Part shown: piece by piece, positions 1 through 64,000 of the stretch
Layout: each line of letters starts with the position of its first letter
Position numbering within the stretch: position 1 is the first letter of the stretch
Assembly: GCA_963697485.1 (NCBI GenBank)
Contig: CAVOOD010000007.1
Span: forward strand, 190,611 to 254,610
Direction of reading: 5' to 3'
DNA: 64,000 bases
DNA from: an uncultured beta proteobacterium
Lineage (GTDB): Bacteria; Pseudomonadota; Gammaproteobacteria; Burkholderiales; Casimicrobiaceae
Position numbers and translations under genes: made by a program
Notes under the pieces: model-generated
Told to the model about the DNA's origin: nothing
The model's input: the letters and a program-made list of their open reading frames with translations, nothing else
Database searches by the model: none

Positions 1-1103
1 CGACGCGGTCGAGCTCGGTCCGTACAGCCATTTCATGCAGAAGGAAATCTTCGAGCAGCCGCGCGCGATCGCCGACACGCTGGAAAGCGTCGGCGGCATC
101 GGGCCCGAGCTGTTCGGGGCCGCGGCGGCCGGAGATCTTCGCCGGCGTCAATGAGGTGCGCGTGCTCGCCTGCGGCACCAGCTACTACTCGGGCATGGTG
201 GCGCGGCTGTGGCTCGAGGCCGTTGCCGGCATACCGGCGCAGGCCGAGATCGCCAGCGAATACCGCTATCGCGACAGCGTGCCCAATCCCGATGCGCTGG
301 TCGTCGTCATCTCCCAATCGGGCGAGACCGCGGATACCTTGTCGGCGCTGAAGCACGCCAAGGCGCTCGGCCATCGCCACACGCTCGCGATCTGCAACGC
401 GCCGACGAGCTCGATGGTGCGGCAGACCGCGCTCACCTACCTGACCCGCGCCGGCGTCGAGATCGGCGTCGCTTCGACCAAGGCGTTCACCACGCAACTG
501 ACCGCGCTGTTCCTGCTGACGCTGACGCTGGCCAAGCAGCGCGGACGGCTCGACGCGGCGCAGGAAGCGCGCTGGCTGCAGGCCTTGCGCCATCTGCCGG
601 CGGCGATCCAGGCGGTGCTGGCGCTCGAGCCCTCGATCATCGCCTGGGCCGAGCGCTTCGCCAAAAAGGAAAACGCGCTCTTTCTCGGACGCGGTCTGCA
701 CTATCCGATCGCGCTGGAAGGCGCGCTGAAGCTCAAGGAAATTTCGTACATCCACGGCGAGGCGTATCCGGCCGGCGAGTTGAAGCACGGGCCGCTCGCG
801 CTGGTCGACGCCAACATGCCGGTCGTCGCGATCGCGCCGAACGACGCGCTGCTGGAAAAGCTCAAGTCGAACCTGCAGGAAGTGCGCGCCCGCGGCGGCG
901 AGCTCTACGTCGTCGCCGATGCCGACAGCCAGATTCCGTCGAGCGACGGCATCCACGTGCTGCGCCTGCCCGAGCACGCCGGGCTGCTGTCGCCGATCGT
1001 GCACACGATCCCGCTGCAGCTGCTCGCCTACCACACGGCCGTGCTGCGCGGCACCGACGTCGACAAGCCGCGGAATCTGGCGAAGTCGGTGACGGTGGAG
1101 TGA
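1..1103 (+). pseudogene. glmS: Glutamine--fructose-6-phosphate aminotransferase GlmS, 3' part (5' end outside window); frame break near 131
   Basis: ORF 156..1103 has SIS-domain motifs ([32 protein letters not shown]) and the canonical C-terminus [12 protein letters not shown]. The upstream residues [28 protein letters not shown] continue the protein in another frame that stops at 152-154. One extra base around ccgg 129-132 separates the two parts. Confidence 0.9.
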
Positions 1104-1125
1104 GAAGCGCCGCCGCAGTCGCGCG

Positions 1126-1473
1126 ATGAAGCTCCGTACCGAATTTCGCCTGCGCATCCGTCGCGGCGATGACATCGCGGTCGGCCCGGGCAAGATCGAC
1201 CTGCTCGAAGCGATCGACGCCGCCGGCTCGATTACCGCCGCGGCGCGCTCGCTCGGCATGTCGTACCGCCGCGCGTGGCTTCTGGTCGACACGATGAATC
1301 GATGCTTTCGCACTCCGGTGGTCGACGCGGAAGCCGGAGGGAAGCGCGGCGGCGGCGCGCGCCTGACCCGGCTTGGGCGAGACGTGATCGAGCGCTACCG
1401 CCGGATCGAACGAAACGCGGCGCGCGCCAGCGCGGCCGACATCCGCGCATTGACACGAAAGCTCGCCGGCTAG
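1126..1473 (+). CDS. ModE N-terminal-domain (winged HTH) molybdate-responsive regulator-like protein, 115 aa, without Mop/TOBE domains
   Basis: The segment GPGKIDLLEAIDAAGSITAAARSLGMSYRRAWLLVDTMN matches the ModE/LysR-type HTH N-domain. The gene lies next to modCBA. Its length is too short to include molybdate-binding domains. Confidence 0.75.
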   Translation: MKLRTEFRLRIRRGDDIAVGPGKIDLLEAIDAAGSITAAARSLGMSYRRAWLLVDTMNRCFRTPVVDAEAGGKRGGGARLTRLGRDVIERYRRIERNAARASAADIRALTRKLAG

Positions 1474-1477
1474 TGTA

Positions 1478-2567
1478 CTAGGCGTAGCCGACGCTGCGCC
1501 GGTCGAGCGATACCGCCTTGATCAGCGCGTAGACTTGCTGGCCTTCGCGCAGTGCGAGCTCGTGCACGGAACGACGCGTGATGCGCGCCGTGAGCGGCAG
1601 CTGTCCGACGCGCAGCTGCACGTCGACGATCGGGCCTTCTTCGGCGGCGATCGCGACCAGCGTCGCCGGCAGCACGTTGAGCACGCTCAATCCCGGCGGG
1701 CGCGCGAGCGCCAGCGACACGTCGCGGGCGCGAATGCGAACGCGTACTCGTTCGCCGACCAGCGCCTCGACGTTGGGCACGATCAGCTCGCCGCCATCGA
1801 AGCGCAGCGTGGTGAGCCCATAGGCGAGATCGTGGGCGGCGACGACGGTCTCGATCACCGATCCCGATTCGTATCGTCCGGTGTGCGGTCGCAGGTCGAT
1901 CCGCCCCATCACCTCGTCGACCGGTCCGGAAGCCAGCGCCTTGCCGTCGGCGAGCAACACGACCGTGTCGGCCAGGCGCGTGATCTCGGCGACCGAGTGG
2001 CTGACGTAGACGATCGGAATATGCAGATCGTCGCGCAGCTGCTCGATGTAGCGCAGCATCTCGCTCTGCCGCGGCACGTCGAGCGAGGCGAGCGGCTCGT
2101 CCATCAGCAGGAGTGCGCGGCTGCGCGAGCAGCGCGCGGCCGATCGCGACGCGCTGCTTTTCGCCGCCGGAAAGCTTGTCCGGCAATCGACGAAGCAGCG
2201 AGTCGAGCCCGAGCAGTCGGATGACGTGCGCCGGATCGATGACGCGCGCAGCAGCCGGCGCGCGATGCAGTCCGTACAGCAGGTTGGATTCGACGTCGAG
2301 GTGCGGAAAAAGCAGCCCATCCTGGAATACGTAGCCGAGGCGTCTCTTGTCCGGCGGCAGGTCGATGCCGCGAGCGCTGTCGAACAGCGCCTCGCCGTTG
2401 ATGACGATGCGTCCGCGTTGCGGACGGCTGATGCCCGCGATCGCATTGACGACGCTGGTCTTGCCCGAGCCCGAGCGACCGAACAGGCCGACGATCGGCG
2501 CCTCGGCGCGAAACGCGACCTTGAGCTCGAACGCCCCGAGGCGCTGCTCGATGTCAACGTCGATCAT
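1478..2567 (-). pseudogene. modC: Molybdate ABC transporter ATP-binding protein ModC, one frame break near 2115
   Basis: N-terminal part has Walker A GRSGSGKTS and signature LSGGEKQRVAIGRALLAQPR. After the break, the frame of ORF 1478..2557 gives LLLMDEPLASLD and a C-terminal TOBE-like domain. The ATG at 2567 overlaps the modB TGA (ATGA). Confidence 0.9.
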
Positions 2568-3221
2568 CGGCCAGCCGTCCTGCGCGATCGTCGCGTCAGC
2601 CATTCGGAAGCGATCAGCGCCGCGATCGACAGAACCACGGCGAAGAGCGACAGGCGCAGCGCCTGGGCATCGCCGCCGGGCATCTGCGTGAACGTGTAGA
2701 TCGCGAGCGGCAGCGTTTCGGTCTCGCCGGGAATGTTGGACACGAACGTGATCGTCGCGCCGAACTCGCCGAGGCTCGCGCGCGAACGACAGCAGCGCGC
2801 CGGTGACGATGCCCGGCAGCGCCAGCGGCAGCGTGATCGACGCGAACACCCAGGCGCGCGATCCGCCGAGCGTGCGCGCGACGATTTCGAGGCGGCGGTC
2901 GATCGCGTCGATCGACAGGCGTATCGCGCGCACCATCAGCGGAAAGCCCATGATCGCGGCCGCGAGCGCGGCGCCGGTCCAGCGAAACGCGAACACGATG
3001 CCGAACCAGTCGGCGAGCCATGCGCCGAGCCGCCCGTGCTTGCCGAAGAGCAGCAGCAGCGCGAATCCGACGACGACCGGCGGCAGCACCAGCGGCAGGT
3101 GGACGAGCGCATCGAGCAGCGTCTTGCCGGGAAAATCGGTGCGCGCGAGCACGTAGGCGAAGAAGATCGCCAGCGGCAGGCTGCACGCAACGCCGACGAA
3201 CGCGACCTTCAGGCTCAGCAC
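2564..3221 (-). pseudogene. modB: Molybdate ABC transporter permease ModB, frame break near 2778; true start uncertain
   Basis: LSLKVAFVG...LVHLPLVLPPVVVGF...FPLMVRAIRLSIDAID, then FAR followed by a 1-nt insertion. The continuation SLGEFGATITFVSNIPGETETLPLAIY...SEWLTRRSRRTAGR is readable in another frame and ends at 2564. Confidence 0.88.
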
Positions 3222-3260
3222 GATGATGCCGAATTCGGTCGTCGCTCGGCACGATGCCCG

Positions 3261-4039
3261 CTAATTCGCCATCGCGAAGCCGTGGCGCAGCCAGATCGCT
3301 CGCGCGGCCGGGCGATGCGCAGGTAGTCGACGAAGCGTCTGCGCGTGATGCGAGCGGCTCGTTGCGACGATCGCGACCGGATAGACGATCGGCGGGTGCG
3401 TCTCCTCGGGAAATGTATCGACGATGCGCACCTTGGGTTCGGCGAGCGCGTCGGTCGTGTAGACGATGCCGAAGCGGCGCCTCGCCGCGCGCCACCAGCA
3501 CGAGCGCGGCGCGCACGTTGTCGTCGCGCGCGATGCGCGATTCGACGCTCGCCCACACGCCGAGCGCAGTCAGCGCCGCCTTGCCGTACTTGCCGGCCGG
3601 AACGCTGTCGGGGTTGGCCATCGCGAGCTTGCTCGTACCGAGCGCGGCAGCGAGCGCGAAGCCCGGCGCGATCGGGAGCGATGCTCGCGCTTGGGCAGGC
3701 GCGATCAGTACCAGCCGGTTGCGCAGCAGGTCGATCCGCGTGCCGGGCGCGCAGCAGATTGCGCTTGTCGAGATAGTCGATCCAGTCGAGGTCGGCCGAG
3801 ACGAAGACGTCTGCGGGCGCACCGGCTTCGATCTGCCTGGCCAGCGCATTGCTTGCTCCGTAGGAGACGACGATCTTGTCGCCTGTTTCGGCTTCGAACC
3901 TGTTGACCTGCTCGTCCAGCGCTTCCTTGAGGCTCGCGGCGGCGAAGACGGTGAGATCGGCGCCGCGCGCAGGCTCGATCGGCAGCCCGGCAAGCGTCAA
4001 TCCGATCGCGACGGCGGCGGTCACCAATAGGCCCCGCAT
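3261..4039 (-). pseudogene. modA: Molybdate ABC transporter periplasmic binding protein ModA, at least 3 frame breaks
   Basis: Signal peptide [18 protein letters not shown], then [15 protein letters not shown]...[30 protein letters not shown]. It continues in other frames (NRLVLIAP..., [21 protein letters not shown]..., [14 protein letters not shown] stop at 3261). Confidence 0.85.
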
Positions 4040-4067
4040 GTTGTTCCCTTCTGCAGCCATGTCGAAT

Positions 4068-4093
4068 GGTAATATACCGTGGGATATAACGAT
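4068..4093. promoter_or_regulatory. Candidate ModE operator upstream of modA
   Basis: ggTAATATAccgtgggATATAACGAt is an AT-rich imperfect inverted repeat. It resembles the enterobacterial ModE box (TATAT-N7-TAYAT flanked by CG) and lies 29-54 nt upstream of the modA ATG in otherwise GC-rich DNA. Confidence 0.5.
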
Positions 4094-4241
4094 GGACAAT
4101 TCGGCACCCGACGGCCCACTCGCGCTCGTCTCGCTCAAGGACACGCGGCCCGGGCCACGCCACGTCAAATGGCTGCAGTCTGTCGAGTTTCGCCTGCTGG
4201 ACAAATAGCGCTCAAGCCGCAGCGCAGGAACTGCGAGCGAT

Positions 4242-5070
4242 TCATGCGTCGCGGTCGCCGGCATTCGGATAGAACAACTGCTCGCCGTCGATCTTGTAGC
4301 CGGCGATGGCGCTCTGGCCCTGCGGGCGAGATCAGCCAGTCGATGAACTGCTGACCCAGATCTTTTTTCACGTTCGGGTGCTTGGCCGGGTTCACCAGCA
4401 TCACGCCGTACTGGTTGAACAGGCGCTTGTCGCCTTCGACCAGGATCGTCAGGTCGCCACGGTTCTTGAATGCGAGCCAGGTCCCGCGGTCGGCAAGGAT
4501 GTAAGCATTCATCGATCCCGCGGTATTTAGCGCCGGCCCCATTCCCTGGCCGACGTCGCGATACCAGGCTCCCTTGCTCTTGTCGATGTCGATGCCGGCG
4601 GTTTTCCATAGCGCGAGCTCCGCCATGTGCGTGCCGCTGCGATCGCCGCGCGACACGAACGGGGCATGCGCAGCCTCCAATTTGGTCAATGCGACGACGA
4701 TGTCCTTGCCACCGCCAACTTTTGCCGGATCGCTTTTCGGGCCGATCAACACGAAGTCGTTGTACATCACCGGAAAGCGCGTGACGCCTTCGCCTTCGGC
4801 GAGAAATTTCTCCTCGGCGGAGCGCGCGTGCACGAAGACGACGTCGGCGTCGCCGCGCCGCGCGACGTCGAGTGCCTGCCCGGTGCCGAGAGCCACGACG
4901 TGCACTTTGGTGCCTGTTTTCGTTTCGAAGATCGGCAACAGGTAGCCGAACAGACCCGATTGCTCGGTCGAAGTGGTCGAGGCGACCGTGATGAATCGTT
5001 CCTGCGCGCCGGCGGCCAACGCCGTCAGCGCCAGTAGAGCGAACAGGCAAACGCGACGAGTCATCACCAT
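4242..5070 (-). pseudogene. tupA: Tungstate/oxyanion ABC transporter substrate-binding protein TupA-like, frame break near 4318
   Basis: Signal peptide plus [14 protein letters not shown] and [10 protein letters not shown] motifs typical of TupA-type binding proteins. An extra base in a ccc/ggg run truncates the ORF-track product. The corrected frame reads [24 protein letters not shown] and stops at 4242. Confidence 0.8.
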
Positions 5071-5798
5071 GGCAATTCTCCTTCGAGGAAACGTGCGGCT
5101 TCGACAGACTGCGGATGCTTGAAAAAAGTCTGGGCGCTCGCGCGCTCCGCGATCCTTCCCAGATGCAGAAAGAGGATCTCGTCGCCCATGCGCCGCGCCT
5201 GGCCGAAGTTGTGGGTGACCAGCACGATCTTGGTACCCGCGGCGACCATGGCCAGGATCACGTTCTCGACCTCGTGGGTTGCGCCGGGATCGAGGCTGGC
5301 TGTAGGCTCGTCGAGGAAAATGATCTCGGGCTGCAATGCCCAGGCACGGGCCAGCGCGAGGCGCTGCTGCTCACCGCCGGAGAGAACGCGTGCCGGATGC
5401 GCGGCGTGCCCCTCGAGGCCCACCTTGGAGAGCGCCTCGCGCGCACGCTCGGAGCGGATCCGCGTCGGAACGCCCGCGATGCCGAGCGCGTGCGAGACGT
5501 TGGCCAGCGCCGAGCGGCGAAGCAGGACCGGCCGCTGAAACACCATCGCCTGCCGCCGCGGGGCTCCGACCGGCTCGACCGAGTTCCAGACGATTGAACC
5601 CGAGGTCGGTGCGAGCAAGCCATGACACAGGCGAAGCAATACGCTCTTGCCCGCTCCGTTGGGCCCGACGATCACCGTGCGCGGCCCTGCGTCGATCGCC
5701 AGCGACAGGTCATCGATGATGCGGCGGCCGCCGGCGGTGAACGTCACGTGGTCGAGACGCAACGGCAGGAGCGACATCGGCGACCGCATGTCCATCAC
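5064..5798 (-). CDS. tupC: ABC transporter ATP-binding protein (TupC-like)
   Basis: Walker A GPNGAGKS, signature [14 protein letters not shown], Walker [13 protein letters not shown]. The stop overlaps the tupA start. Confidence 0.85.
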
Positions 5799-5800
5799 CG

Positions 5801-6505
5801 TTACCCGTAGCGCCGTTGCGCGGTTTCCTTGACCAGGTACGCCGCCGCGTTAAGCGCAACCACGATCGTGACCAGGATGACCCCGAGCCCGAGCGCGAGC
5901 GGAAGATCGCCCTTGCTGGTCTCCAGCGCGATCGCGGTGGTCATCACGCGCGTGACGCCGTCGATGTTGCCGCCGACGATGATCACCGCGCCGACTTCGG
6001 CCGCTGCCCGTCCGAACCCGGCGAGCACGATCGTCACCAGCGAAAAGCGAAGGTCCCAGAGCAAGGTCGCAACCGATCCGAGCCGGGTCTCGCCCAGCGA
6101 GCGAAGCTGCTCTCGGTATTCGATCCAGGCGTCCTCGACGACTTGCCGGGTAAGCGCTGCGATGATCGGCGTGATCAGAATCGCCTGGGCGATCACCATC
6201 GCCGACGGGGTGAACAGCAGTCCCATGGCGCCCAGCGGACCCGCACGCGAAAGCAGCAGATACACCAGCAGCCCGACCACGACCGGCGGCAGACCCATCA
6301 GCGCGTTCAAAAGGACGATGGTGGTCCGGCGCGCGGGAAAGCGACTGATGGCGATCAACGCGCCGAGCGGGAGGCCGACGGCGCTGGCGATCGCGACGGC
6401 GCTTAGGCTAACGCGCAGGCTCAAGCCCACGATGCCGCCCAGCCGCGGATCGAGCGACGCGACCAGATGCCAGGCGTCGGCCAAGGCCGCGGGAACGCTG
6501 CTCAC
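5801..6505 (-). CDS. tupB: ABC transporter permease (TupB-like)
   Basis: Multi-pass membrane protein with binding-protein-dependent transporter architecture. It is the first gene of the tupB-tupC-tupA operon and has a GTG start. Confidence 0.8.
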   Translation of the reverse strand: MSSVPAALADAWHLVASLDPRLGGIVGLSLRVSLSAVAIASAVGLPLGALIAISRFPARRTTIVLLNALMGLPPVVVGLLVYLLLSRAGPLGAMGLLFTPSAMVIAQAILITPIIAALTRQVVEDAWIEYREQLRSLGETRLGSVATLLWDLRFSLVTIVLAGFGRAAAEVGAVIIVGGNIDGVTRVMTTAIALETSKGDLPLALGLGVILVTIVVALNAAAYLVKETAQRRYG

Positions 6506-6732
6506 GAGGCGGGGGGCAAGCTTGGGTTAATATGCACTAACATACTTATATGAAGATTTATTAACTATCATCATGCAGATTCAAGATGATAAGGCCAGGC
6601 GGCCCGCAGTCCAACAGGCAAAGATGTGCCTAATCGGGCCGGCTCGGTCAACGCCTCTCGCCAGCCGGCGCCTGCCTTCGGGGCGTAGCTGATTTACGGT
6701 ACGATGGGCGCCCCCGATCCACTGCCTTTCCG

Positions 6733-7680
6733 ATGGAATTTGCGTTCATCGTCGATCCGCCCGAGTGGCTGAAGGCCTACAAGGACACGAGCATTTCGAT
6801 GATGCGTGCCCTGCAGGCCCGGGGGCACGCGATCTACCTGACCGAACCCAAGGAGCTTTTCTGGCGCGACGCGGTGACGCAGGCGCGTGTGCGTCGCATC
6901 GAGGTTACCGCCGATGACCACGACTGGTACCGGTCCGCGGAAGCCCAAACGCGGCCGCTGGCCTCGTTCGCCGCGGTGCTGATGCGCAAGGACCCTCCGT
7001 TCGACATGGAATACGTCTACTCGACCTATCTGCTCGAGGCGGCCGAGCACGAAGGCGCGTACGTGATCAACGGCCCTCGCGCGATACGCGACCACAACGA
7101 AAAATGGGCGATCGCCGAGTTTCCCGAGTTCACCGTTCCGACGCTGGTGACGCGCGATCCCGATCTCATCGCCGGCTTCATCGACGAGCACGCCGACGTC
7201 ATCCTGAAGCCGCTCGACGGCATGGGCGGATCGTCGATCTTTCGCGTGCGCCGCGACGACGTCAATCGCAACGTGATCATCGAGACGATGGCGCATTTCG
7301 GCGCGCGCAGCGTCATGGCACAGCGATTCATTCCCGAGATCGCCGATGGCGACAAGCGGATCATCCTGATCAATGGCGAGCCGGCGCCGCATGCGCTGGC
7401 GCGCATCCCCAAGGCCGGTGAGACGCGCGGCAACCTGGCGGCCGGCGGCCGCGGCGTGGCGCGTCCGCTGACGCCGCGCGATCGCGAGATTGCCGAAACG
7501 ATCGGGCGGGCGCTGGCCCCCAAGGGCCTGTTCGTCATCGGTCTCGACGTGATCGGCGACTACCTGACCGAGGTCAACGTGACCAGCCCGACCGGGTTTG
7601 TCGAGATCAGCCAGCAGACCGGGTTCGACGTCGCCGGCGCCTTTGCGCAGGCGCTGGAAAAGAGCGTCGCTGCGCGTTGA
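6733..7680 (+). CDS. gshB: Glutathione synthetase
   Basis: ATP-grasp GshB motifs are present: VILKPLDGMGGSSIFRV, GDKRIILINGEP, ARIPKAGETRGNLAAGG, GLDVIGDYLTEVNVTSPTG. Confidence 0.92.
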   Translation: MEFAFIVDPPEWLKAYKDTSISMMRALQARGHAIYLTEPKELFWRDAVTQARVRRIEVTADDHDWYRSAEAQTRPLASFAAVLMRKDPPFDMEYVYSTYLLEAAEHEGAYVINGPRAIRDHNEKWAIAEFPEFTVPTLVTRDPDLIAGFIDEHADVILKPLDGMGGSSIFRVRRDDVNRNVIIETMAHFGARSVMAQRFIPEIADGDKRIILINGEPAPHALARIPKAGETRGNLAAGGRGVARPLTPRDREIAETIGRALAPKGLFVIGLDVIGDYLTEVNVTSPTGFVEISQQTGFDVAGAFAQALEKSVAAR

Positions 7681-7819
7681 GGCGCGACCGGGCGCGAGCC
7701 TTGCCGCGCAGTCGTGCGTGCTAAGATAAAGCCACCGCGCGCGAGGTATCTAAAGTTCGGGACCAATGACAAATGCCGCGGGACACACTCATGGCGCGGG
7801 CCGTCAGGGGACAGACAGC

Positions 7820-8233
7820 ATGATCGGCATCCTCATCGTCGCCCACGGCACCTTGAGCGACAGCCTGATCGGGGCGGTGACTCACGTGCTCGGGAGCCGT
7901 CCGCCCCAGTTCGAGGGCATGCGCGTTGCCGCGGCTGACGATCCGCTGGCGTTGCTGCCGCGGGCGCGCGAGGTTGTCAAGTCGCTCGACAGCGGCGACG
8001 GCGTGCTGATCTTCTCCGACATCTACGGCGCCTCGCCCTGCAACCTTGCGATCAAGCTGCTGCAGCCCGGGCGCATCGAAGCCATCGCCGGCGTCAACCT
8101 GCCGATGCTCGTGCGTGCCTTTACCTATCGCAACAAGGGCATGGACACGATGATCAAGAAGGCCATCAGCGGCGGCTGCGACGGCGTCGTGCGCGTCGAG
8201 GTGGACCCGATCTATGCAGCAACGCGAAATTGA
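7820..8233 (+). CDS. PTS EIIA component, mannose/fructose family
   Basis: MIGILIVAHGTLSDSL contains the phosphorylatable His region. This is the conserved first gene of an EIIA-HPr-EI cluster. The ATG at 7820 is preferred over the ORF-track start at 7766. Confidence 0.8.
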   Translation: MIGILIVAHGTLSDSLIGAVTHVLGSRPPQFEGMRVAAADDPLALLPRAREVVKSLDSGDGVLIFSDIYGASPCNLAIKLLQPGRIEAIAGVNLPMLVRAFTYRNKGMDTMIKKAISGGCDGVVRVEVDPIYAATRN

Positions 8234-8483
8234 AATCGTCAACAAGCTGGGATTGCATGCGCGCGCATCGGCGAAGCTGACGCAGCTTGCTGCGAAATAT
8301 CAATGCGATGTGTCGCTGGCGCGCAACGGACGCAAGATCAATGCCAAGAGCATCATGGGCGTGATGATGCTGGCGGCGGGCAAGGGTTCCCGCGTCGTGC
8401 TCGAGACCGACGGGCCCGACGAGACCGAGGCGCTCGACGCGATTACCGCGCTGATCGGCGACTACTTCGGCGAAGGACAATGA
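8214..8483 (+). CDS. ptsH: Phosphocarrier protein HPr
   Basis: 89 aa with the GLHARAS active-site His and the NAKSIMGVM regulatory Ser region. Confidence 0.9.
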   Translation: MQQREIEIVNKLGLHARASAKLTQLAAKYQCDVSLARNGRKINAKSIMGVMMLAAGKGSRVVLETDGPDETEALDAITALIGDYFGEGQ

Positions 8484-8645
8484 CGACCGCGCTGCGCGCG
8501 CAGCGGATCGTCGCCGATGGCAGACACATCGAGTTGCATCATTCGCGGAACCAAAGCCCGCGGCGCAGGCTCAATGAACAAGCGTGCTTCCCGGTCGTAA
8601 CCAGGCACGCAGGCTCATACCTCAACTGCGACGGGCGTCTCGATC

Positions 8646-8915
8646 ATGCAAAGTCTCGACATCGGCATCACCAACCGCTTGGGTCTTCACGCACGCGCGG
8701 CAGCACAGATTGTGCGTCTCGCGTCGCAATTCCGGTGCAGCGTCTGGCTGATCGTGAACGGACGGCGCGCGAGTGCGCGCAGCATGGTCGCCGTGATGAT
8801 GCTGGCGGCCAGCATGGGCAGCACGATCAGGCTGGAAACCAGTGGACCCGACGAGGCGGCGGCGATGGTGGCGATGGTGCAGCTGATCGGCGACGGGTTC
8901 GGCGAGACGCGTTAA
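8646..8915 (+). CDS. Second HPr-family phosphocarrier paralogue
   Basis: 89 aa, with GLHARAA and SARSMVAVM retained. It is roughly half identical to the upstream HPr by eye. No obvious Shine-Dalgarno sequence. Confidence 0.7.
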   Translation: MQSLDIGITNRLGLHARAAAQIVRLASQFRCSVWLIVNGRRASARSMVAVMMLAASMGSTIRLETSGPDEAAAMVAMVQLIGDGFGETR

Positions 8916-8931
8916 CCCGGCGTCCTCGCCG

Positions 8932-10662
8932 GTGAGCTTTGTCCTGCACGGCATCGGCGTTTCAGGCGGCGTCGCCATCGGCCGGGCGCAGCTGGTCTCG
9001 CACGCAACGCTGGAAGTCGACCACTACGCGATCCGCCCCGAGCAAGTCGCGGCCGAGATCGACCGGCTGACGCTCGCATTGCGGGCGGTCCAGAAGGAGC
9101 TCGAGGCGCTGCACGGCGCGATGACGTCGGGCGATGCGCCGGCCGAATTCGGCGCATTCCTCGACGTTCATTGGATGATCCTGACCGATCCGACGCTTTC
9201 CGAGGCGCCGAAGCGGATGATCGCCGACCAGCTGTGCAACGCCGAATGGGCGCTGACGCAGCAGATGAACGTGCTGGTCGAGCAGTTCGAGTCGATCGAG
9301 GACCCGTACCTGCGCGAGCGCAAGGCCGATGTCGTCCAGGTGGTCGAGCGCGTGCTCAAGGTCCTGCTTGGCAAAGCGCAGCGGCGTCCCGCCAGCGCCG
9401 AAGACGAGACGATCCTGGTCGCGCACGATCTGTCGCCGGCAGACGTCATTCAGTTCAAGAGCCACCATTTCGCCGCGTTCCTGACCGACCTGGGCGGCGC
9501 GAGCTCGCACACCGCGATCGTCGCGCGCAGCCTCAACGTCCCGGCCGTCGTGGCGACGCACAACGCGCGCGGCCTGATCCGCGAGCACGAGCTGTTGATC
9601 GTCGACGGCGCCAAGAACGTCGTCATCGTCAATCCCGACCGTTCGGTGCTCGCCGAGTACCGGCTGAAGCAGGGCGAGATCGAGCTCGCGCGCAAGAAGC
9701 TCAAGCGTCTCAAGACGACGCGCGCGACGACGATCGACGGCACCGACATCGAGCTGTTCGCCAACATCGAGCTGCCCGACGATCTCGATCAGGCGCTGGA
9801 CAACGGCGCCGGAGGCATCGGGCTTTTCCGCAGCGAGTTCCTGTTTCTCAATCGCCAGGGACTGCCTTCGGAGGACGAGCAGTTCGAGGCGTACCGGCAG
9901 GTCGCTGCCGGCATGCGCGGCAAGCCGGTGGTCATTCGCACGTTCGATCTCGGCGCCGACAAGAGCAAGGAGGGTCTCGACGGGCTGGTGCGCGTCGCGC
10001 CGAATCCTGCGCTGGGATTGCGCGCGGTGCGCTTTTGCCTCGCCGAGCCGCGGCTGTTCCTGACGCAGCTCCGGGCGATCCTGCGCGCATCGCATTACGG
10101 CAACATCCGGATCCTGCTGCCGATGCTCGCCTCGATCGCCGAAATCGATCAGACGCTGGTGCTGCTCGCGCAGGCCAAGGGCAGCCTGCTCGAGCGCGGC
10201 GTGCCGTTCAATCCGTCGATCGAGGTCGGCGGCATGATCGAAATTCCGGCCGCGGTGCTCACGATCGAGCCGTTCGCGCGCCGGCTGGATTTCCTGTCGA
10301 TCGGCACCAACGACCTGATCCAGTACACGCTGGCCGTCGATCGCGCCGACGAAGCCGTTTCGCATCTCTACGATCCGCTGCATCCGGCGGTGCTCAAGCT
10401 GATCGCGCTGGCGATCGCGACGGCGAACAAGGTCGGTGTTCCCATCGCCGTCTGCGGCGAAATGGCCGGTGAAGTACGCCTGACGCGCCTGTTGCTCGGC
10501 ATGGGCCTGCGCAACTTTTCGATGCATCCGGCGCATCTGCTGGCGGTCAAGCAGCGCGTGCTGATGACCGACGTCGGCGAGATCCGGCCGCTGGTCAGGC
10601 GCCTGCTGCGCGGCGAGGAGACGGTGAAGGTCGCCGCCCTGCTCGAGAAGCTCAATGATTGA
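8932..10662 (+). CDS. ptsI: Phosphoenolpyruvate-protein phosphotransferase (PTS enzyme I)
   Basis: 576 aa. GGASSHTAIVARSL is the active His region. GLFRSEFLF, IRTFDLGADK and SIGTNDLIQY are also present. Confidence 0.93.
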   Translation: MSFVLHGIGVSGGVAIGRAQLVSHATLEVDHYAIRPEQVAAEIDRLTLALRAVQKELEALHGAMTSGDAPAEFGAFLDVHWMILTDPTLSEAPKRMIADQLCNAEWALTQQMNVLVEQFESIEDPYLRERKADVVQVVERVLKVLLGKAQRRPASAEDETILVAHDLSPADVIQFKSHHFAAFLTDLGGASSHTAIVARSLNVPAVVATHNARGLIREHELLIVDGAKNVVIVNPDRSVLAEYRLKQGEIELARKKLKRLKTTRATTIDGTDIELFANIELPDDLDQALDNGAGGIGLFRSEFLFLNRQGLPSEDEQFEAYRQVAAGMRGKPVVIRTFDLGADKSKEGLDGLVRVAPNPALGLRAVRFCLAEPRLFLTQLRAILRASHYGNIRILLPMLASIAEIDQTLVLLAQAKGSLLERGVPFNPSIEVGGMIEIPAAVLTIEPFARRLDFLSIGTNDLIQYTLAVDRADEAVSHLYDPLHPAVLKLIALAIATANKVGVPIAVCGEMAGEVRLTRLLLGMGLRNFSMHPAHLLAVKQRVLMTDVGEIRPLVRRLLRGEETVKVAALLEKLND

Positions 10663-10696
10663 CTTTCGCCTGCGCGGCGCTAGACTAGAACCCACG

Positions 10697-10737
10697 CGCC
10701 GATTTGACGATCAGCTTGCGGGCGCAAGGGAAGCTTC
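10697..10737 (+). ncRNA. Candidate SAM-II-like riboswitch aptamer in the metX leader (unverified)
   Basis: cGATTTgacgatcaGCTTGCgggcGCAAgggAAGCTt has a U-rich tract, a CUUGC/GCAAG hairpin and a 3' AAGCU complementary to the AGCUU just 5' of the hairpin. This is the kind of layout recalled for SAM-II elements upstream of metX/metA. Confidence 0.3.
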
Positions 10738-10784
10738 TTCGCGGTTTCCCTGACAAATACGGCTAAAGCGGCGACGGAGATCCG

Positions 10785-10820
10785 AACCCGATTGGCGCCA
10801 AGCTGGTCGGGTTTTTTATT
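10785..10820 (+). terminator. Intrinsic terminator or attenuator hairpin between ptsI and metX
   Basis: 7-bp stem aacccga/tcgggtt (10785-10791 and 10807-10813) with a 15-nt loop, followed by ttttatt. Confidence 0.5.
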
Positions 10821-15866: not shown

Positions 15867-15876
15867 CGTGGAGGCG

Positions 15877-53271: not shown

Positions 53272-53293
53272 GAGCGATTCATTCCGATCGGCG

Positions 53294-54622
53294 TTACTTG
53301 AGCGGAATGTCGAGCGGGCGTACGCGCTCGGTCGCCGCCCGATGCGCCGCGGGACTGTCGGCCATCGAGTCGAAGTTGCCGGAGCGATCGGTCAGCAAGG
53401 ACGCGGCGTACATCAGTGCCTGCGCCTGGGTGCTGCTGAATCCCATCGCCTCGCGAGCTTTCGCATGCCCGGCGTCGCTCGCCTGGTAGTAGGGCAGCGC
53501 GAGCGATCGGCTGAGCTCCAACCTAGCCTGCACCTGCGACGAGAAGATGGATCGATGCTCGTCGCGCCTGGCGCGCTGGCGAAAACACCGGTCGATCGTG
53601 TGTGCCGCCGCGTAGGCCGAGTACATGCCGAATACGACGCCCACCGAGAAGATAGGGTCGACGAAGCCCGCCGCGTCGCCGAGCAGGAAGAATCCCGGCC
53701 CGGCAACCCGGTTGGACCGGTACGAGTAGTTCCGTACGAGCCGCACCGACCCTTCGCAGAACGTCGCGTCGGCCAGCAGCCGCTGCAGCAGCGGCAACGC
53801 GCGGCATTGCCTCAAAAACCAGGCCTCCCACGACTCGCCGCTTGCTTTGCTTTCGCTCGCCCACGCCTTGGGGATGACGAGGCCGATGCTCGTCGACTCC
53901 CGCAGCATGATGTGCCAGAGCCAGGCCCATCCGTCGCCCTGCGGCAGCGCGCTGACGTACGTTGTCGGCGGCACTTCGCGCACCGACTGCGCCGGATAGA
54001 TCTGGCCGTCGGCCGCCAGATAGCTCGAGTTCGCGAAATAGCCCCACACGCTCATGAAGCGGAAGCCCTCGTCGAAAACGCGCAGTCCCAACTGCCTGCC
54101 GAGGACGCCGGTCTGCCCGCTGGCATCGACGACGTACCGGCAGCGAATCCGCGACGCGCTGCTCTCGCCGACCGGCCGATAGCTGACCGAGACTTCGCTC
54201 TCGTCGTCCTCCGCCCGCGAGAGATCCGCCCCCAGGACCGCGATCTCCTCGCCGACCCAGGCGCCGGACGCGCGCGCCCGCTCGAACAGAATCTGATCGA
54301 AGCGGTCGCGCTCGACATGCAGCGCGGGCCGCGTGTATCCGAAGTCGCCGAACGAAAGGCGGCGCATCTCGCCGTTCCAGTCGACGCTGCCCCCGGCCTT
54401 CCGCAGGAAACCTTCACCGGCGATCGCGTCGCTCACCCCGGCGGCGTCGCAGTACTTCCAGACATCGGGCAGCAGGCTCTCCCCCACTTGATACCGAGGG
54501 TGCTTCTGCCGCTCGAACAAGGCAACGGAGTAGCCCTTGTCGGTCAGGTAGGTCGCAGCGAGACTGCCCGCCGGCCCGCCGCCGATCACCACCACGTCGC
54601 ACGATTCGGGAACCGTGCTCAC
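53294..54622 (-). CDS. FAD-dependent halogenase-like oxidoreductase
   Basis: Rossmann VVVIGGGPAGSLAA; a WxWxI-type motif GWAWLWHIM; FVDPIFSVGV matching the halogenase Fx.Px.Sx.G motif. The GTG start overlaps the carrier-protein stop (GTGA). Confidence 0.65.
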   Translation of the reverse strand: MSTVPESCDVVVIGGGPAGSLAATYLTDKGYSVALFERQKHPRYQVGESLLPDVWKYCDAAGVSDAIAGEGFLRKAGGSVDWNGEMRRLSFGDFGYTRPALHVERDRFDQILFERARASGAWVGEEIAVLGADLSRAEDDESEVSVSYRPVGESSASRIRCRYVVDASGQTGVLGRQLGLRVFDEGFRFMSVWGYFANSSYLAADGQIYPAQSVREVPPTTYVSALPQGDGWAWLWHIMLRESTSIGLVIPKAWASESKASGESWEAWFLRQCRALPLLQRLLADATFCEGSVRLVRNYSYRSNRVAGPGFFLLGDAAGFVDPIFSVGVVFGMYSAYAAAHTIDRCFRQRARRDEHRSIFSSQVQARLELSRSLALPYYQASDAGHAKAREAMGFSSTQAQALMYAASLLTDRSGNFDSMADSPAAHRAATERVRPLDIPLK

Positions 54623-54882
54623 GGGGGGAGTTTCTTCACGATCAGATTCCTGACCGCCCGCAGCGTCTGGAAATTTTCGATGAGGACTTCGTCGGGCTCG
54701 ATCGAAACCGCGAACTTCTCTTCGACGAACGCGATGAGCTTGAAGATGCCCAGCGAATCGACCAAGCCTTCGGCGATGATGTCGGTATCCGGCGCGACGA
54801 CGATCGCGCCTTCCCGCCCCGCTTCTTCCTGTGTGAAGAACCGTGCGAGCGTGTCGAAGATTTGCTGGTCGGTATAGATCAT
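54619..54882 (-). CDS. Acyl/peptidyl carrier protein, DltC-like
   Basis: 87 aa. EGLVDSLGIFKLIAFVEEKF contains the phosphopantetheine-Ser motif in a DltC-like context. The ATG overlaps the upstream stop (ATGA). Confidence 0.8.
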   Translation of the reverse strand: MIYTDQQIFDTLARFFTQEEAGREGAIVVAPDTDIIAEGLVDSLGIFKLIAFVEEKFAVSIEPDEVLIENFQTLRAVRNLIVKKLPP

Positions 54883-55863
54883 GGCGCTTTGAAGATCTCC
54901 GTGTTGGGGATGGCAGGCGGCGAACTCGTACCACTCTCCAACGCCGGATTCGAGGTACGCGAGCTGCGTTCCGGCGAGAGGGCCGGAGATCGCTTCGCCC
55001 ATTTCGTTCCACACCGACCCGGTCTGTTCGTCGTACACCCCGCGCGCTTCGGAGTAGCCGAACACCAGGATGCGATCGCCGACCCGGCGATGAAAGGCCA
55101 GCGCCTGCAAGGTCCCGGGCCGGCAGCGCAGGACGATCTCCGCACCGCCGAGCGAGTCGTTCAGGACCGGCCCGATCCGCGCCAACGCCTGCAGCGGATA
55201 CGCCCGGGCCTTCGCTCGCGTTCTCGACGCCGAGGACGAGCGTGTTGTGCGGGAGTCGCTCGTCGAGGGGCCTGACGAGCGTGGCGAGAAACCCAGGCGA
55301 GATGCCGGGCGAACCGGGTGAAAGTGGCTCCCGCGCCCCTCGCGCAACGCCTGCTCGGCGTACAGAACCATTGTCGTCGGATGCATCGCGAGCCACTCGC
55401 TCCACAGACACTGCGAGAGCGGGAGGCGCTTGAGGGCCGCCCCTCGCATCGCGCCGGCCAGCGCAACGCCGGTGAACGGCGACCAAAGGCTATCGGTCGA
55501 GCTGGTCTTCCAGGAGCATCGTGCCGTTGTACTGCCCTCGCAGACGAAAGAGCGAGACGCTGCCCTTCGACCTCCGCCCGAAAGGCCGACGCGCTGCTGC
55601 ACATCGCGCAGAGCGTCACGACCACGGGCCGATCGTCGAAGGCGAGGTTCGCGACGTGAGGGTGCTCTCATGATCCACCACGGCAGCGCCCAGGCGCGGC
55701 GGCCCAGATAGAGCCCGAGGACCGGGTCGTCGTCGCGAAGGTGGTCGTACACGTCGGTCCAGACCGGGTCGTTCAGCGGCTGAGGCGCCCTTGTCGCGAG
55801 TTCTTTCGCTTCAAACAGGTGCGCTTGCGGCAGTTCGCAGTGGGTGTCGACGGTTTCAACCAT
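54879..55863 (-). pseudogene. DUF3179-domain protein, at least 4 frame breaks
   Basis: PVLGLYLGRRAWALPWWIM, VVTLCAMCSSASAF (other frame), DSLWSPFTGVALAGAMRGAALKRLP, WSEWLAMHPTTMVL and the C-terminus HP-NTEIFKAP stop (an extra c in a cccc run). Confidence 0.65.
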
Positions 55864-57425
55864 GGGGAAGCTCCTCGTGCAGCCGCAGTCGGTCGACTTT
55901 GCCGGTGCTGCCGCGCGGAAGCGACCCGCGCACCGCGATCGACAGCGGAATCATATACGCAGGGAGACGTTCGGCGCAAAACGCACGAAGCTTGCCGGCA
56001 TCCAACGCGCGCCCGGCCTTGGCGACCGCCGCGGCGCGTATCACGTGGCCGCTCTCCTCGTCGGGTATGGCGATGGCTGCCGCCTCCGCTACGTCCGGAT
56101 GCTGGTGCAAAACACTTTCGATTTCACCAAGCTCGATGCGGTAGCCGCGGCTTTTTACCATTCCGTCCCGGCGGCCGAGAAGATGAAGCAGCCCGGCGCC
56201 ATCCTCGCGCACGAGGTCTCCGGTCCGATACCAGAGGGCGCCCTCGCTCCGTTCGCCGCGAGAGACGAGGGCATGTGCGGTGGCGTCGGGCATCGCCTGG
56301 TAGCCGGTCATCACGCTCGGGCCGCTGACGTAGAGCTCGCCCGTTTCGCCTGGCTCGCACACCGACCCCGCGTCGTTCACGACGAGCAGCTTGCTGTTCG
56401 CGCACGCTGTGCCGATCGGCACGGGCGCTGTCTGCTCTGGCGGCAGCGCGTCGACTGCGTAGGCGGTGCAGACGTTGGTCTCGGTCGGCCCGTACCAGTT
56501 CCAGTAGCGCGCGCCGGGGATTTGCTCGCGCAGGCGGCGCAGATGCGCGACCGGGAAGACTTCGCCGGCGAAAATGATCTGGCGCAGCTGCGACCAGTCG
56601 TGGCGCTCGAGTCCGCCCGAGAGCGCGAGTCGCGCGAGCAGCGAAGGTACCGAGTACCAGACGGTGATCCGCTGCGCTGCGATCCAGTCCGCGAGATTGC
56701 GTGGGAAGACGTTGAGGCCCGGCGGCACCAGTGCAACGCAGGCGCCCGCCTTGCAACTCGCGAAGAGGTCGAACACCGACAGATCGAAGTGCAGCGGTGC
56801 GTGGCTCGACACGACGTCGGTCGGGGCGAGCGCTGTGGCCTCGGCCGCCCAATCGACGAACGAGAGCGCGGCGCGATGGCTGAGCACGACACCTTTTGGC
56901 TGTCCGGTCGAGCCCGACGTGTAGAGGATGTACGCCGTGCACGAAGGATCGCGCTCTTCCCGACCGGCGCTCTTGTCCGGCACCGGAACACGCGAGGGGT
57001 TCGCCCTTTCGAAGCCAAACTCCACGTCGACCGGCCGCGGCGCCGCGCGAGCGATGCCGACGAAGGCCGGCGCGGACGCGAGCGCGGGAGCGAGCAGCGG
57101 CCACCACTTCGGCGTGGAGAAGATACCGCAAAGGTCGCCGTTCTCGACGATACGCGCGACTCGCTTGACAGGCGACGCGACGTCGAGCGGCACGTACGCG
57201 GCCCCGGCCCGGAGCACGCCCCACATGGCGACGATCGCGTGGAGCGACTTGTCCAGGTAGAGTCCGACGCGATTTCCGGGCCCCGCGCCTTGTGCGACGA
57301 GCTCGATCGGCGAGGCGGGCGGAGGACTCGTCCAGCTCGCGATAGCTGATCGACTTCGCCCCGTCGACGACCGCCGTCCGGTCCGGATACCTGGCCGCGC
57401 TTTGGATCAGCAGATCGTCGAGCAT
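55856..57425 (-). pseudogene. Stand-alone amino-acid adenylation (AMP-binding) enzyme, DltA/NRPS A-domain-like, one frame break near 57305
   Basis: A-domain core motifs are present: LYTSGSTGQPKGV, FDLSVFDLF, NWYGPTETNV, YRTGDLV, GRRDGMVKSRGYRIELGEIE and PRGSTGKVDR. Confidence 0.85.
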
Positions 57426-60198: not shown

Positions 60199-61264
60199 CT
60201 AGAGCTTGCTCGCGTAGTCCTTCTGCACCTTCTTGATGCGCTCGTGCGAGCCCAGGAACGCGTGCTTCGACATGTCGGCGGAGTACTTGCTCGCCGGCGG
60301 ATGCTTGCCGACCGCTTCGGCCAGCGCGCGGATGTGATGCGGCCCGGCGCCGCAGCACACGCCGAGATAGCGGATGTCCAGGCGCCAGCGCCTCGCGGCC
60401 GAATTCGGCGATCTCGAAGCGATTGCAGGTGAACGGGTCGAGCGCGACCGGGAACGGCCGGCTGACCCTTCGTCGTAGTGCCAGTGCGCATCGCGCAGCG
60501 ACTGGAACGACGGCTCGCGCTCGCTGGTGCGATACGGAACCGGCAGCGCCGCGATGTGCGTCTTGACCGCGGCGCGGATCTCGCGCAGCAGCGGCATCAT
60601 CGTCGCCGGGCCGCGGATGCAGTTGAGGCCGACGACGTCGGCGCCGGCGTCGGCCAGCCGCTTGCACGCGTCGACGACGCTCCAGTTCTCGCGCGTCACG
60701 TCGGCCTGGTGCATCGCCAGCGTGATCACCGCCGTCTGCCCGGCGCGCTTGACCACGTCGAGCGCGATCAGCGCTTCCTGCGCATAGGAGAACGTCTCGC
60801 CGATGATGAAATCGACGCCGGCGTCGACCGCCCAGCCGACCTGCTCCTCGAACATCGCGCGCACCGCCTTGTGCGACGCCGCGTCGGCCGGATCGTAGAC
60901 GTTGGTGTTGCAGATGTCGCCGGCGAAGAGCGCGCCGGTTTCCGCGCGCCACGGTCTTGGCGATCTCGAGCGCGCGCCGGTTGATCGGCTCGAGGTCCTT
61001 CTCGCGGCCGATGATGCGCAGCTTCTCGCGATGCGCGTAGTAGGTGAGCGCTTCGACGACGTCGGATCCGGCGTGCACGAAGTCGCGGTGCAGCTGCGCG
61101 ACGACTTCGGGGTGCTCGAGCACCACCTCGGGGACGAAGGCGCCGGCCTGCAGATAGCCGCGCCGTTCGAGCTCGAACACGTAGCCCTCGGCGCAGATCA
61201 CCGGGCCCTGATCGAGACGTTCCAGCAGCGAGTTCGATGGGCGTTGCGTTGCGGTCGCGGTCAT
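60199..61264 (-). pseudogene. Betaine/homocysteine S-methyltransferase-family enzyme, about 3 frame breaks (near 60945, 60470, 60385)
   Basis: [63 protein letters not shown] and [18 protein letters not shown] (zinc-binding Cys pair). Confidence 0.8.
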
Positions 61265-61520
61265 GGCGTCTGCCTTGGGAGTGGAGCGCGCGACTATCGC
61301 ACCTTTGCCGGCCGCGACCAGTCGCCAGCCGACGCCGATTGTCGCCGGTGCGACATCGGCGGCTCCGACCCGGGCCTGGCGCGTCGCCGCTCGCGCCGGG
61401 GCAGCCGGCGTCCGCACCATGGACCAACCCGGGTCGCATCTGGAACACTTGCGGCCCGGCGCGCCGACTATGCTGGCGGCGAGCGCCCGCGGCACGCGCG
61501 CAAGCGCTCGGAGGATGGCG

Positions 61521-62185
61521 ATGGAAACGCTGGCGTTCATTCTGCACAACCTGCCGGCCATCGGCGAGCGCACGCTCGAGCACGTCTCGATCGTCGGCGT
61601 CGCGGTCGGCCTCGCGATCCTGACCGGCGTGCCGCTCGGCATCGCGATCACGCAGAGCCAGCGCGCCGCCGACACCGTGCTCTACCTCGGCTCGATCGTG
61701 ATGACGATTCCGTCGATCGCGCTGTTCGGCGTGCTGATTCCGCTGCTGTCGATGATCGGCCAGGGCATCGGCTACCTGCCGGCGGTGATCGCCGCGATGC
61801 TCTACGCGCAGCTGCCGATCATCCGCAACACCTACACCGCGATCACGCAACGTCGATCCGGCGCTGCGCTCGGCCGCGCATCGGCATGGGCATGTCGACG
61901 CTCGCAGCGGCTGCTGCGCGTCGAGATTCCGATCGCGCTGCCGGTGATCATGGCCGGCGTGCGCATCGCCGTCGTCATCAACATCGGCGTCACCGCGATC
62001 GCCGCGTACATCGGCGCCGGCGGGCTCGGCACGTTCATCTCGCCGCGGCATCTCGCAGACCGACGTGCGCCAGCTGATCACCGGCGCGCTCGCGCTCAGC
62101 CTGCTCGCGATCGTCGGCCGACTACGCGCTGCTCTGGCTGCAGCGCCGGCTCACGCCGAAGGGCGCCGCGGAGCGCGCGGGTTGA
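61521..62185 (+). pseudogene. Osmoprotectant (glycine betaine/choline-type) ABC transporter permease, frame breaks
   Basis: [11 protein letters not shown]...IPSIALFGVLIPL...GIGYLPAVIAAMLYAQLPIIRNTY, then VEIPIALPVIMAGVRIAVVINIG and LLAIVADYALLWLQRRL in other frames. Confidence 0.8.
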
Positions 62186-62194
62186 TGCGGTCCG

Positions 62195-63214
62195 ATGGCG
62201 ACCACAGACATGATCCGGCTCGAAGCGCTGACCAAGATCTACCCGTCGGCGCACGGCGGCGCGGCTTCGGTCGATCGCGTCAGCTTCGAAGTCGGCGCCG
62301 GCGAGACCTGCGTGCTGCTCGGGCCGTCCGGCTGCGGCAAGACGACGACGCTGCGCATGATCAACCGGCTGGTCGCGCCGACGTCGGGCAAGATCTTCAT
62401 CGACGGCACGCGACACCGGCGCCGTCGATCCGGTCGAGCTGCGCCGCACGATCGGCTACGTGATCCAGCAGATCGGCCTCTTTCCGAACATGACGGTCGC
62501 GGAGAACATCGGCGTCGTGCCGCGGCTGCTCGGCTGGGATCGCGCGCGGATGCGCCGCGCGCGCCGAGGAGCTGCTGGCGATGCTCGCGCTCGAGCCCGC
62601 GCGACTTCCTCGACCGCTATCCGAAGGAGCTCTCCGGCGGCCAGGCGCAGCGCGTCGGCGTCGCGCGCGCGCTCGCCGCCGATCCGCCGGTGCTGCTGAT
62701 GGACGAGCCGTTCGGCGCCGATCGATCCGATCAATCGCGAAGTGATCCAGGACGAGTTCCTGCGCATGCAGAAGGCGCTGCGCAAGACGGTGCTGTTCGT
62801 CAGCCACGACATCGACGAGGCGGTGAAGATGGCCGACCGCATCGCGATCTTCCGCGCCGGCACGCTCGAGCAGTTCGCAGCGCCCGACGAGCTGCTCGCG
62901 CGGCCCGGCGAACGACTTCGTCGCCGACTTCGTCGGCAGCGATCGCACGCTGAAGCGCCTGCGGCGCATCGCCGTCAGCGAAGTGATGAGCACTGCTGGC
63001 GCGGGACGTCGCCGCTGCGCCGGACGCGCCGACGGTCGCGCCAGGCGACGACCTGCGCCGCGTCGCCACGCTCTTTCTCGAGCGTGGTGTCGACGTCGCT
63101 GCGCGTGCGTCGACGCCGGCGGACGCGCTGGTCGGCGTGGTCACGCGCGACGCCGTCGCCGCACGGCTTGCGGCACCGGCCGGCGGCAACGGCTCCGGCG
63201 CGCCGCCGCGATGA
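62195..63214 (+). pseudogene. Osmoprotectant ABC transporter ATP-binding protein, several frame breaks
   Basis: [69 protein letters not shown] and [19 protein letters not shown]. The tail is compatible with CBS domains. Confidence 0.82.
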
Positions 63215-63960
63215 CCACCGCCACCGTGCCCCAGCGCTCGGCTGCTGCCGTACGCGGTGCTGGCCGGCATCGCGCTGGCGGTCGTCTGGGTGCTGGTCGC
63301 AAGCGGGCTGTGGACCGACATCCTGCGCTACCGCAAGGACATCGTCTATCTGACCAAGCAGCATCTGGTGCTGGTCGCGCATCTCCGGCAGCGCTCGCGA
63401 TCGTCACCGGCGTCGCGCTCGGCATCTGGCTGTCGCGGCCGTGCGATGGCGCGCTATGCGGAAGCGATGATCCAGGCGGTCAACATGGCGACCTCGATCC
63501 CGACGCTCGGCAAGCTCGCGCTGATGATGACGCTTGCTCGGCATCGGCGCGCTGCCCGCGATCGTCGGGCTGTGGATCGCGACGCTGCTGCCGATCGTGC
63601 GCAACACCTACGCCGGCATGCGCGCGGTGCCGGCGCACCTGGTCGACGCGGCGCACGGCATGGGCATGAGCCCGCGGCGCGATCCTGCGCCGGGTCGAGC
63701 TGCCGAACGCGCTGTTCGTGATCTTCGCCGGCATACGCACGGCGATGGCGGTCAACGTCGGCACCGCGCCGATCGCTTTCCTGATCGGCGGCGGCGGGCT
63801 GGGCGAGCTGATCTTCACCGGCATCGACCTGCAGGAATACGGGATGATGCTGGCCGGCGCGATTCCGACCGCGCTGCTCGCGGTAGCCGTGGATTTCCTG
63901 TTCGGGCAGGCGCAGTATTGGCTGGTACCGCGCGGCGTCAATCCGCTGCGGAATTCTTGA
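63211..63960 (+). pseudogene. Second osmoprotectant ABC transporter permease, frame breaks
   Basis: LAGIALAVVWVL..., IPTLAKLALMMT.., GLWIATLLPIVRNTYAGMRAVP, VELPNALFVIFAGIRTAMAVNVGTAPIAFLIGGGGLG. The ATG overlaps the ATPase stop (ATGA). Confidence 0.8.
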
Positions 63961-63981
63961 GAGCAAGTCCGAGGAGGAACG

Positions 63982-64000
63982 ATGAACAAGGCGATAGGGA
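63982..64000 (+). CDS. Start of the next gene, expected from operon layout to be the substrate-binding protein; only 6 codons in the window
   Basis: SD gaggagga followed by ATG AAC AAG GCG ATA GG. The function is inferred only from the permease-ATPase-permease-binding protein order of YehZYXW/OpuC-type operons. Confidence 0.35.

Follow-up and report, generated by a model that had tools for sequence, protein, structure and literature searches.

Frame-breaking single-base insertions in a Casimicrobiaceae metagenome-assembled genome: probable consensus errors of long-read assembly rather than gene decay

Genome, window and sequence comparison

A first-pass annotation of a 64,000-nt stretch of an uncultured Casimicrobiaceae genome (contig CAVOOD010000007.1, positions 190611-254610; hereafter the window) found about half of the genes broken by frame-shifting indels, including genes for PBP2, MreC, TolB and Pal. 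Here we describe these frame breaks and argue that they very probably represent consensus errors of a long-read metagenome assembly and not mutations of the organism. The assembly (GCA_963697485.1, here G000) is a metagenome-assembled genome (MAG) of 3.58 Mb with 66% GC in 8 contigs, of which the contig carrying the window is C7. Protein searches showed that its relatives are uncultured Casimicrobiaceae (Burkholderiales) MAGs of soil and sediment origin. The marker completeness of G000 is 61% and its contamination 0.8%. Within the genus, MAGs with at most 9 contigs score 61-88% completeness, whereas fragmented short-read MAGs reach 83-97%. This paradox of high contiguity with low completeness is expected where indels break marker genes, and the value of 61% probably understates a genome that is near-complete.

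Since the very high GC content makes lists of open reading frames (ORFs) uninformative, the coding frame was followed with a codon-usage hidden Markov model (HMM), both in the window and in the whole genome. Consensus indels were called from nucleotide alignments of the window with 5-7 relatives, and ORFs that are single and intact in the short-read relatives G012, G002 and G021 were searched against the window with tblastn. The closest short-read MAG is G021, with 90-94% identity and 43 kb aligned with the window. Plain pairwise indel counts between relatives were too noisy as a control, since alignment artefacts gave rise to 12-40 symmetric events in each pair, and were replaced by a strict rule under which an indel had to be private against all others. 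Pfam was run on the intact orthologues of broken window genes. The ratio of nonsynonymous to synonymous substitution rates (dN/dS) was computed after implicit frame correction on the codons of the relatives. Syntenic contigs were retrieved by exact-protein look-up of MreB and MreD, and ENA contigs were classed as long-read-style from their names and sizes.

Frame breaks along the window

By HMM, homology and alignment, one or more frame-shifting indels are present in 25 of the 49 analysable genes of the window, with 65 events in total, so the estimate of about half of the genes holds. The alignments gave 77 consensus indels of a length not divisible by three, of which 62 are net +1, and at the coding indel sites all relatives agree against the window (62 +1 sites, 5-7 relatives). 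ORFs that are intact in relatives are split in the window into 2-5 tblastn high-scoring segment pairs (HSPs) in 2-3 frames: five for PBP2, four each for TolB and the YeeE-like gene, and two each for glmS, modC and the BHMT-like gene. The names given to TolB, Pal, CpoB, MutY, PBP2 and the BHMT-like gene agree with the Pfam matches of the intact orthologues. No nonsense codons were found within the window gene bodies, as noted before for the stretches between breaks; all in-frame stops are confined to the ends of stop-to-stop ORFs.

The distribution is uneven and blockwise, as had been described. The HMM placed break points at 130, 2113, 2773, 4328, 31114 and 33084 and a frame switch every 50-300 nt in the regions 36.9-44.5 kb and 60.2-64 kb, with long clean stretches elsewhere, thereby reproducing the break points and dense blocks of the first-pass annotation. 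The dense blocks reach about one error per 130 bp.

The window opens with a broken block (1-4400) comprising the 3′ part of glmS and the genes annotated as modCBA and tupA, with about 9-10 extra-base sites (around 132, 2114, 2571, 2777, 3242, 3474, 3748 and 4321). Here the HMM switches frame, five out of five relatives disagree with the window, and the glmS and modC orthologues of G012 and G021 are split into two frames. In the following block (5064-13919) the gene bodies are unbroken according to HMM and alignments, and indels are intergenic only (6509-6730, 7705, 10782, 10860 and 12610). Sparse breaks occur in 13945-18270, at about 14195-14201 and 15633 in the gene annotated as yheS and further at 16871, 18088 and 18142. 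The second clean block, 18468-30530, harbors a GroEL-like ORF, a 1140-aa ORF, gatCAB and mreB, and is again unbroken by both methods.

Downstream of mreB, the genes mreC and mrdA (encoding PBP2), both on the plus strand, carry five extra bases. The one in mreC (31112) is lacking in 4-7 relatives and in L219, a conspecific contig with an intact 304-aa MreC. The first in mrdA (32509) occurs neither in L219 nor in any relative. At 33092 the window has C plus T where relatives read CTG or TTG, and this base is also missing from L219. Two more lie near 33218-33222 and near 33831-33835. The latter has the sequence CG[C/A], and the related long-read contig L214 carries it at an identical site. A third clean block (34063-36753; HMM and tblastn) covers rodA, a gene for a 181-aa membrane protein and an rlpA-like gene.

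The first dense block starts with four plus-strand genes. In tolB (36782-38155) extra bases lie at about 37108, 37563 and 37814; the gene gives four HSPs in three frames, with seven out of seven relatives against the window. The pal gene for an OmpA-family lipoprotein (38157-38743) has about five breaks (38252, 38290, 38338, 38442 and 38525), and at 38442 the window sequence AGCG unites two haplotypes of the relatives, AGC and GCG. About six breaks were found in cpoB/ybgF (38758-39626), at 38909, 39118, 39241, 39271, 39430 and 39539, and about 12 in mutY (39631-40709), the densest stretch, where local GC is 70-76%. The segment 40001-42000, which contains the 3′ part of mutY plus further ORFs, has a local GC of up to 76%; the intact G021 orthologues of its ORFs (L200:1265-2227, minus strand, and L200:1121-2248, plus strand) gave no Pfam match. 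The rest of the block (40880-44516), with unnamed genes and the YeeE-like gene, is broken at 40895, 41358, 41562, 42674, 43894, 43922 and 44278. An accessory operon (50681-57425) has sparse breaks at 51623, 51854, 52531, 54904 and 57306. The second dense block, 60199-63960, comprises the BHMT-like gene and the osmoprotectant ABC genes. No fewer than 11 extra bases lie in its part up to 62573, beyond which the frame switches every 50-300 nt.

Spectrum of events and genome-wide pattern

The strict private count over 31 kb of window gene bodies gave 37 frame-shifting events, all of them +1, with no −1 and no in-frame events. The same count gave 0, 3 and 2 in the close relatives G012, G011 and G002, respectively. 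Coding alignments with G021 alone showed 79 single-base insertions and 24 single-base deletions, of which 61 clean +1 events were left after merging nearby compensating gaps. The earlier description of the damage as almost purely single-base insertion or deletion thus stands for the single base; the deletions are not borne out, and nearly all events are insertions. Each of the four bases occurs among the insertions, and 80% of the inserted bases differ from both neighbours, on which ground homopolymer slippage was rejected. A run is extended at only 2 of 46 sites as compared to an expectation of 33%, which refines the observation that some breaks lie in short runs and others do not: homopolymers are avoided. 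A comparison of 61 sites for a motif of programmed frameshifting or methylation-linked error gave nothing beyond GC-richness and a weak preference for positions 5′ of CGC/GCG; a methylation motif was not searched for.

The pattern extends over the whole genome, where the HMM found 3,186 intragenic frame switches (0.89/kb). Their +1:−1 ratio is 2425:761, as against 496:495 at ordinary gene boundaries. Switch density climbs monotonically with GC content: it is 0.04 per 2 kb in sequence of less than 58% GC and reaches 5.6 per 2 kb where GC is 72-74%. The same trend is seen inside the window with alignment-based counts. The events are also clustered, with a coefficient of variation of inter-event distances of 2.0 and 34 gaps longer than 10 kb where 0.4 are expected. 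This clustering exceeds what GC predicts, the lag-1 autocorrelation of the GC-adjusted residuals being 0.37.

Independent assemblies of the same region

Contigs from other assemblies that cover the same 11.7 kb (gatA to cpoB) differ according to their origin. Four short-read JGI/SMAG assemblies have no private frameshifts in this region, in comparison to 10 in the window. Four ENA contigs with names of the type contig_N and sizes of 54-887 kb carry 12, 6, 3 and 2, mostly +1 and at differing sites. In L210, L211, L212 and L214, large contigs of related Casimicrobiaceae (ENA ERZ25039551/54/56), the genes for PBP2, TolB, Pal, GatA and a guanylate cyclase are split, with different genes affected in each contig. 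The frame-break problem seems general to that set of ENA assemblies.

The closest independent sequence is the JGI short-read contig L219, which encodes an identical MreD and is 96.3% identical to the window over 2.8 kb. As compared to this conspecific contig, the window has exactly three single-base insertions (31112, 32509 and 33092), and these account for every frame break of the 2.8 kb. Apart from them, the two sequences differ in length only by 9 nt, in frame, at window position 30551, either just before mreC or at its beginning; this looks like an ordinary natural indel, unlike the +1 events. Exact-protein look-up for a same-strain contig gave no match for RodA and a 147-aa protein, relatives of 87-95% for MreB, and 96.3% as the best result for MreD.

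Allele doubling and the origin of the extra bases

At a typical site, where the relatives show a single base, two unlike bases stand next to each other in the window, and both correspond to alleles found among the relatives, often at synonymous third codon positions. Examples are CG[C/A] in PBP2, GG[C/A] and A[C/G]C in TolB, GA[C/G] in CpoB, and AT[C/A], AC[G/C] and [C/G]AG in MutY; the ENA contig L210 shows the same doubling (CT[G/C]). A stricter first allele classifier retained 21 sites only, and the relaxed version, which retained 46, was tested against random and context-matched null models. The pattern with both alleles was found at 28 of the 46 classifiable sites, whereas 12.9 ± 3.0 were obtained with simulated insertions matched for 4-mer context (P~5e-6) and 24-26% of sites with random insertions (P~1e-7).

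Further observations suggest indirectly that closely related populations occur together. The 35-kb contig C5 is over its whole length an alternate-haplotype contig of C2:505951-541326 (90% identity over 27 kb), and C6:1-5088 is an alternate version of C3:251674-256783 in the same bin (95.8% identity); therefore, the bin mixes closely related populations. The MreB look-up likewise found several related populations in the same ENA samples. The density of frame switches is highest in C5 (1.6/kb) and lowest in C6 (0.24/kb). The two rRNA operons (C3:1057637-1063357 and C2:154016-159826) are 97-98% identical, with 102 mismatches and 24 gaps of mostly 1 nt. This divergence is far above the usual within-genome level and suggests that the bin combines several populations or that the rRNA, too, contains consensus errors; the 2-3% difference was left out as evidence of error, mixed populations explaining it equally well.

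If the extra bases are artefacts, their most likely origin is a collapse of strains during assembly, a step that we infer together with the platform and the polisher. In a sample with several close strains, the assembler would merge these into one sequence; Flye is known to merge strains of ~98% identity, and marker completeness falls when indel errors are present (PMC8302730). At a single-nucleotide polymorphism or a small multi-base difference between strains, noisy reads would then align the two alleles into separate columns, and a consensus that keeps both would turn a substitution polymorphism into a +1 insertion. Dense blocks would correspond to regions where a second strain co-maps, and clean stretches to regions where the population is effectively clonal. 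Reduced read accuracy or coverage where GC is very high probably contributes as well. Tandem alleles of this kind would explain why +1 events prevail, why homopolymers are avoided, why any of the four bases may be inserted and why extra substitutions are lacking; they would also explain the blockiness and the insertion sites shared with L214.

The extra bases could also be plain random long-read consensus errors in low-coverage or unpolished blocks, which the first-pass annotation had given as an example, without involvement of strain mixtures. We regard this as possible, yet distinctly less probable. The blocky distribution, the GC dependence and the error frequency in the dense blocks do resemble raw consensus, and low-coverage Nanopore MAGs lose coding density through errors (PMC12313526, MFD-LR). 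However, random error predicts deletions next to insertions, and the ratio here is 37:0; it predicts that about one third of the insertions extend a run, and 2 of 46 do so; and it does not predict the excess of sites with both alleles. Private substitutions are not in excess in the broken genes either. The earlier assumption of a locally poor consensus is thus upheld, but its cause needs refining: insertion-only events outside homopolymers and preferentially at polymorphic columns, with both alleles in tandem, point to strain collapse rather than to plain low coverage.

Selection, essential genes and gene decay

The other reading proposed at first, a lineage that has recently become host-restricted and is losing envelope and other genes by pseudogenisation, would fit the number of envelope genes that are struck (mrdA, mreC, tolB, pal and cpoB). 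In having half of all genes affected, G000 resembles Mycobacterium leprae or Sodalis. Selection on the broken genes is nevertheless unchanged. The comparison with orthologues that had been proposed, in which indels are set against substitutions, gave next to the 37 private +1 events a median dN/dS of 0.163 and an amino acid identity of 86.3% for broken genes, and 0.194 and 85.1% for intact genes. At otherwise conserved codons the ratio of window-private nonsynonymous to synonymous changes is 0.16 in broken and 0.17 in intact genes, values that G011 and G012 match in those genes, and no excess of private substitutions was found in the broken ones. A gene with 5-12 neutral indels should carry many neutral substitutions and some nonsense codons, and their absence argues against decay.

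The damage is also not restricted to dispensable functions. Alignments showed that the sole rpoB copy of G000 is in six pieces and the sole rpoC in five, with about 17 private single-base insertions between them. In the short-read assembly G005 both genes are intact, with 1,382 and 1,423 amino acids. Single extra bases also occur in rpoC of the relative G011, another contiguous assembly (9 contigs, 83% complete; L221, G011:C1:100068-112510), where the longest ORF is 968 aa. They are at other positions than those of G000, and the error syndrome is thus shared by G011, though less frequent there.

Other marks of decay were looked for in G000 and not seen: the frame-tolerant coding fraction is 0.86, there are 10 repeat pairs of at least 500 bp, and insertion sequences (IS) are not expanded; genome size and a GC content of 66% are normal. 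Natural decay is deletion-biased, whereas all private events here are +1, without a single nonsense codon and without private in-frame or larger deletions. The conspecific contig L219 lacks the insertions, and the relatives are MAGs from soil and sediment. A host-restricted lineage shedding envelope genes is unsupported by these data, and genuine pseudogenisation is very improbable.

Another reading takes the extra bases as real and bypassed at expression, through transcriptional slippage, RNA editing or programmed ribosomal frameshifting of the +1 type. It would account for the uniform +1 direction and for the intact downstream frames, from which skipping of every site would yield a complete protein. 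Thousands of such sites, including those in rpoB and rpoC, would have to be read through by a novel recoding or RNA correction, which we consider extremely improbable: the sites have no shared slippery motif or stop codon, only a GC-rich context, are conserved in no relative, number up to 12 in one 1.1-kb gene, and fall on variable columns and allele pairs.

Weighing of the evidence and implications

We thus consider it highly probable that the frame breaks are consensus errors of a long-read metagenome assembly. They are private, consist of insertions only, avoid homopolymers and go with the technology of assembly; purifying selection persists, indispensable genes are among those broken, and allele doubling is in excess. 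The preference of the first-pass annotation for a poor long-read consensus over decay is supported by the private character of the indels, their absence from short-read assemblies including the conspecific one, and the broken rpoB and rpoC genes.

Several points weigh against this conclusion or against its strain-collapse part. The case is built on sequence comparison and not on raw reads, and the closest independent sequence, at 96.3% identity, is from a conspecific but different strain. Strain collapse alone leaves the strong GC dependence unexplained; we suspect that reads from very GC-rich DNA are less accurate or fewer, and that the dependence comes from this. At 18 of the 46 sites both alleles are not found among the relatives at hand. 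Furthermore, two coding insertions, at about 33831-33835 in mrdA and about 37814 in tolB, have the same position and base in the window and in its closest long-read relative L214 (ENA ERZ25039556 contig_86080, 94.8% identical), where ~0.1 coincidences are expected. We read these as probable recurrence at the same hypervariable column rather than inheritance.

The frame breaks are not a biological feature, and PBP2, MreC, TolB, Pal, RpoB and the other affected proteins are most likely intact in the organism. The G000 record is apparently a species representative, in which about every second gene would be taken for a pseudogene or a gene fragment. The error signature (+1 only, outside homopolymers, in GC-rich DNA, with tandem alleles at variable sites) could serve to flag or repair such MAGs without reads. 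The remedy that it suggests is strain-aware polishing and not more coverage.

Comparison with known systems

Pseudogene-rich genomes of host-restricted bacteria, for example those of Mycobacterium leprae and Sodalis glossinidius, show nonsense codons, deletions, expansion of IS elements and relaxed selection, and their core machinery is spared. G000 shares with them the large fraction of interrupted genes, but has none of their other marks of decay. Closer similarity exists to assemblies and MAGs with long-read indel errors, obtained with Nanopore or PacBio CLR (PMC9262707, PMC12007338, PMC12313526). In these, as in G000, frameshifts occur without nonsense codons, gene calls are split, marker completeness is low despite high contiguity, and the defects are absent from short-read assemblies. 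The type of error is different: Nanopore errors are classically deletions within homopolymers, whereas G000 has insertions outside homopolymers. A large Nanopore-only catalogue of soil MAGs was made with Flye and one round of Medaka, and MAGs of more than 50% completeness were accepted (PMC12313526). The problem cases in this MFD-LR set are tied to low GC and long homopolymers, unlike the errors in G000, which are enriched in GC-rich DNA. G000 may itself stem from this catalogue, to which it is linked only by the naming style of the contigs of its relatives.

The closest parallel for the proposed mechanism is found in the assembly of Trypanosoma brucei Lister 427, where collapsed alleles bring indel errors and apparent frameshifts into the consensus (PMC8445201). 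That organism is a diploid eukaryote, whereas the haplotypes in case of G000 would be co-occurring soil strains. In both, nearby allelic variants would shift the read alignments and thereby give rise to indels in the collapsed consensus, and in T. brucei these indels vanish on phasing.

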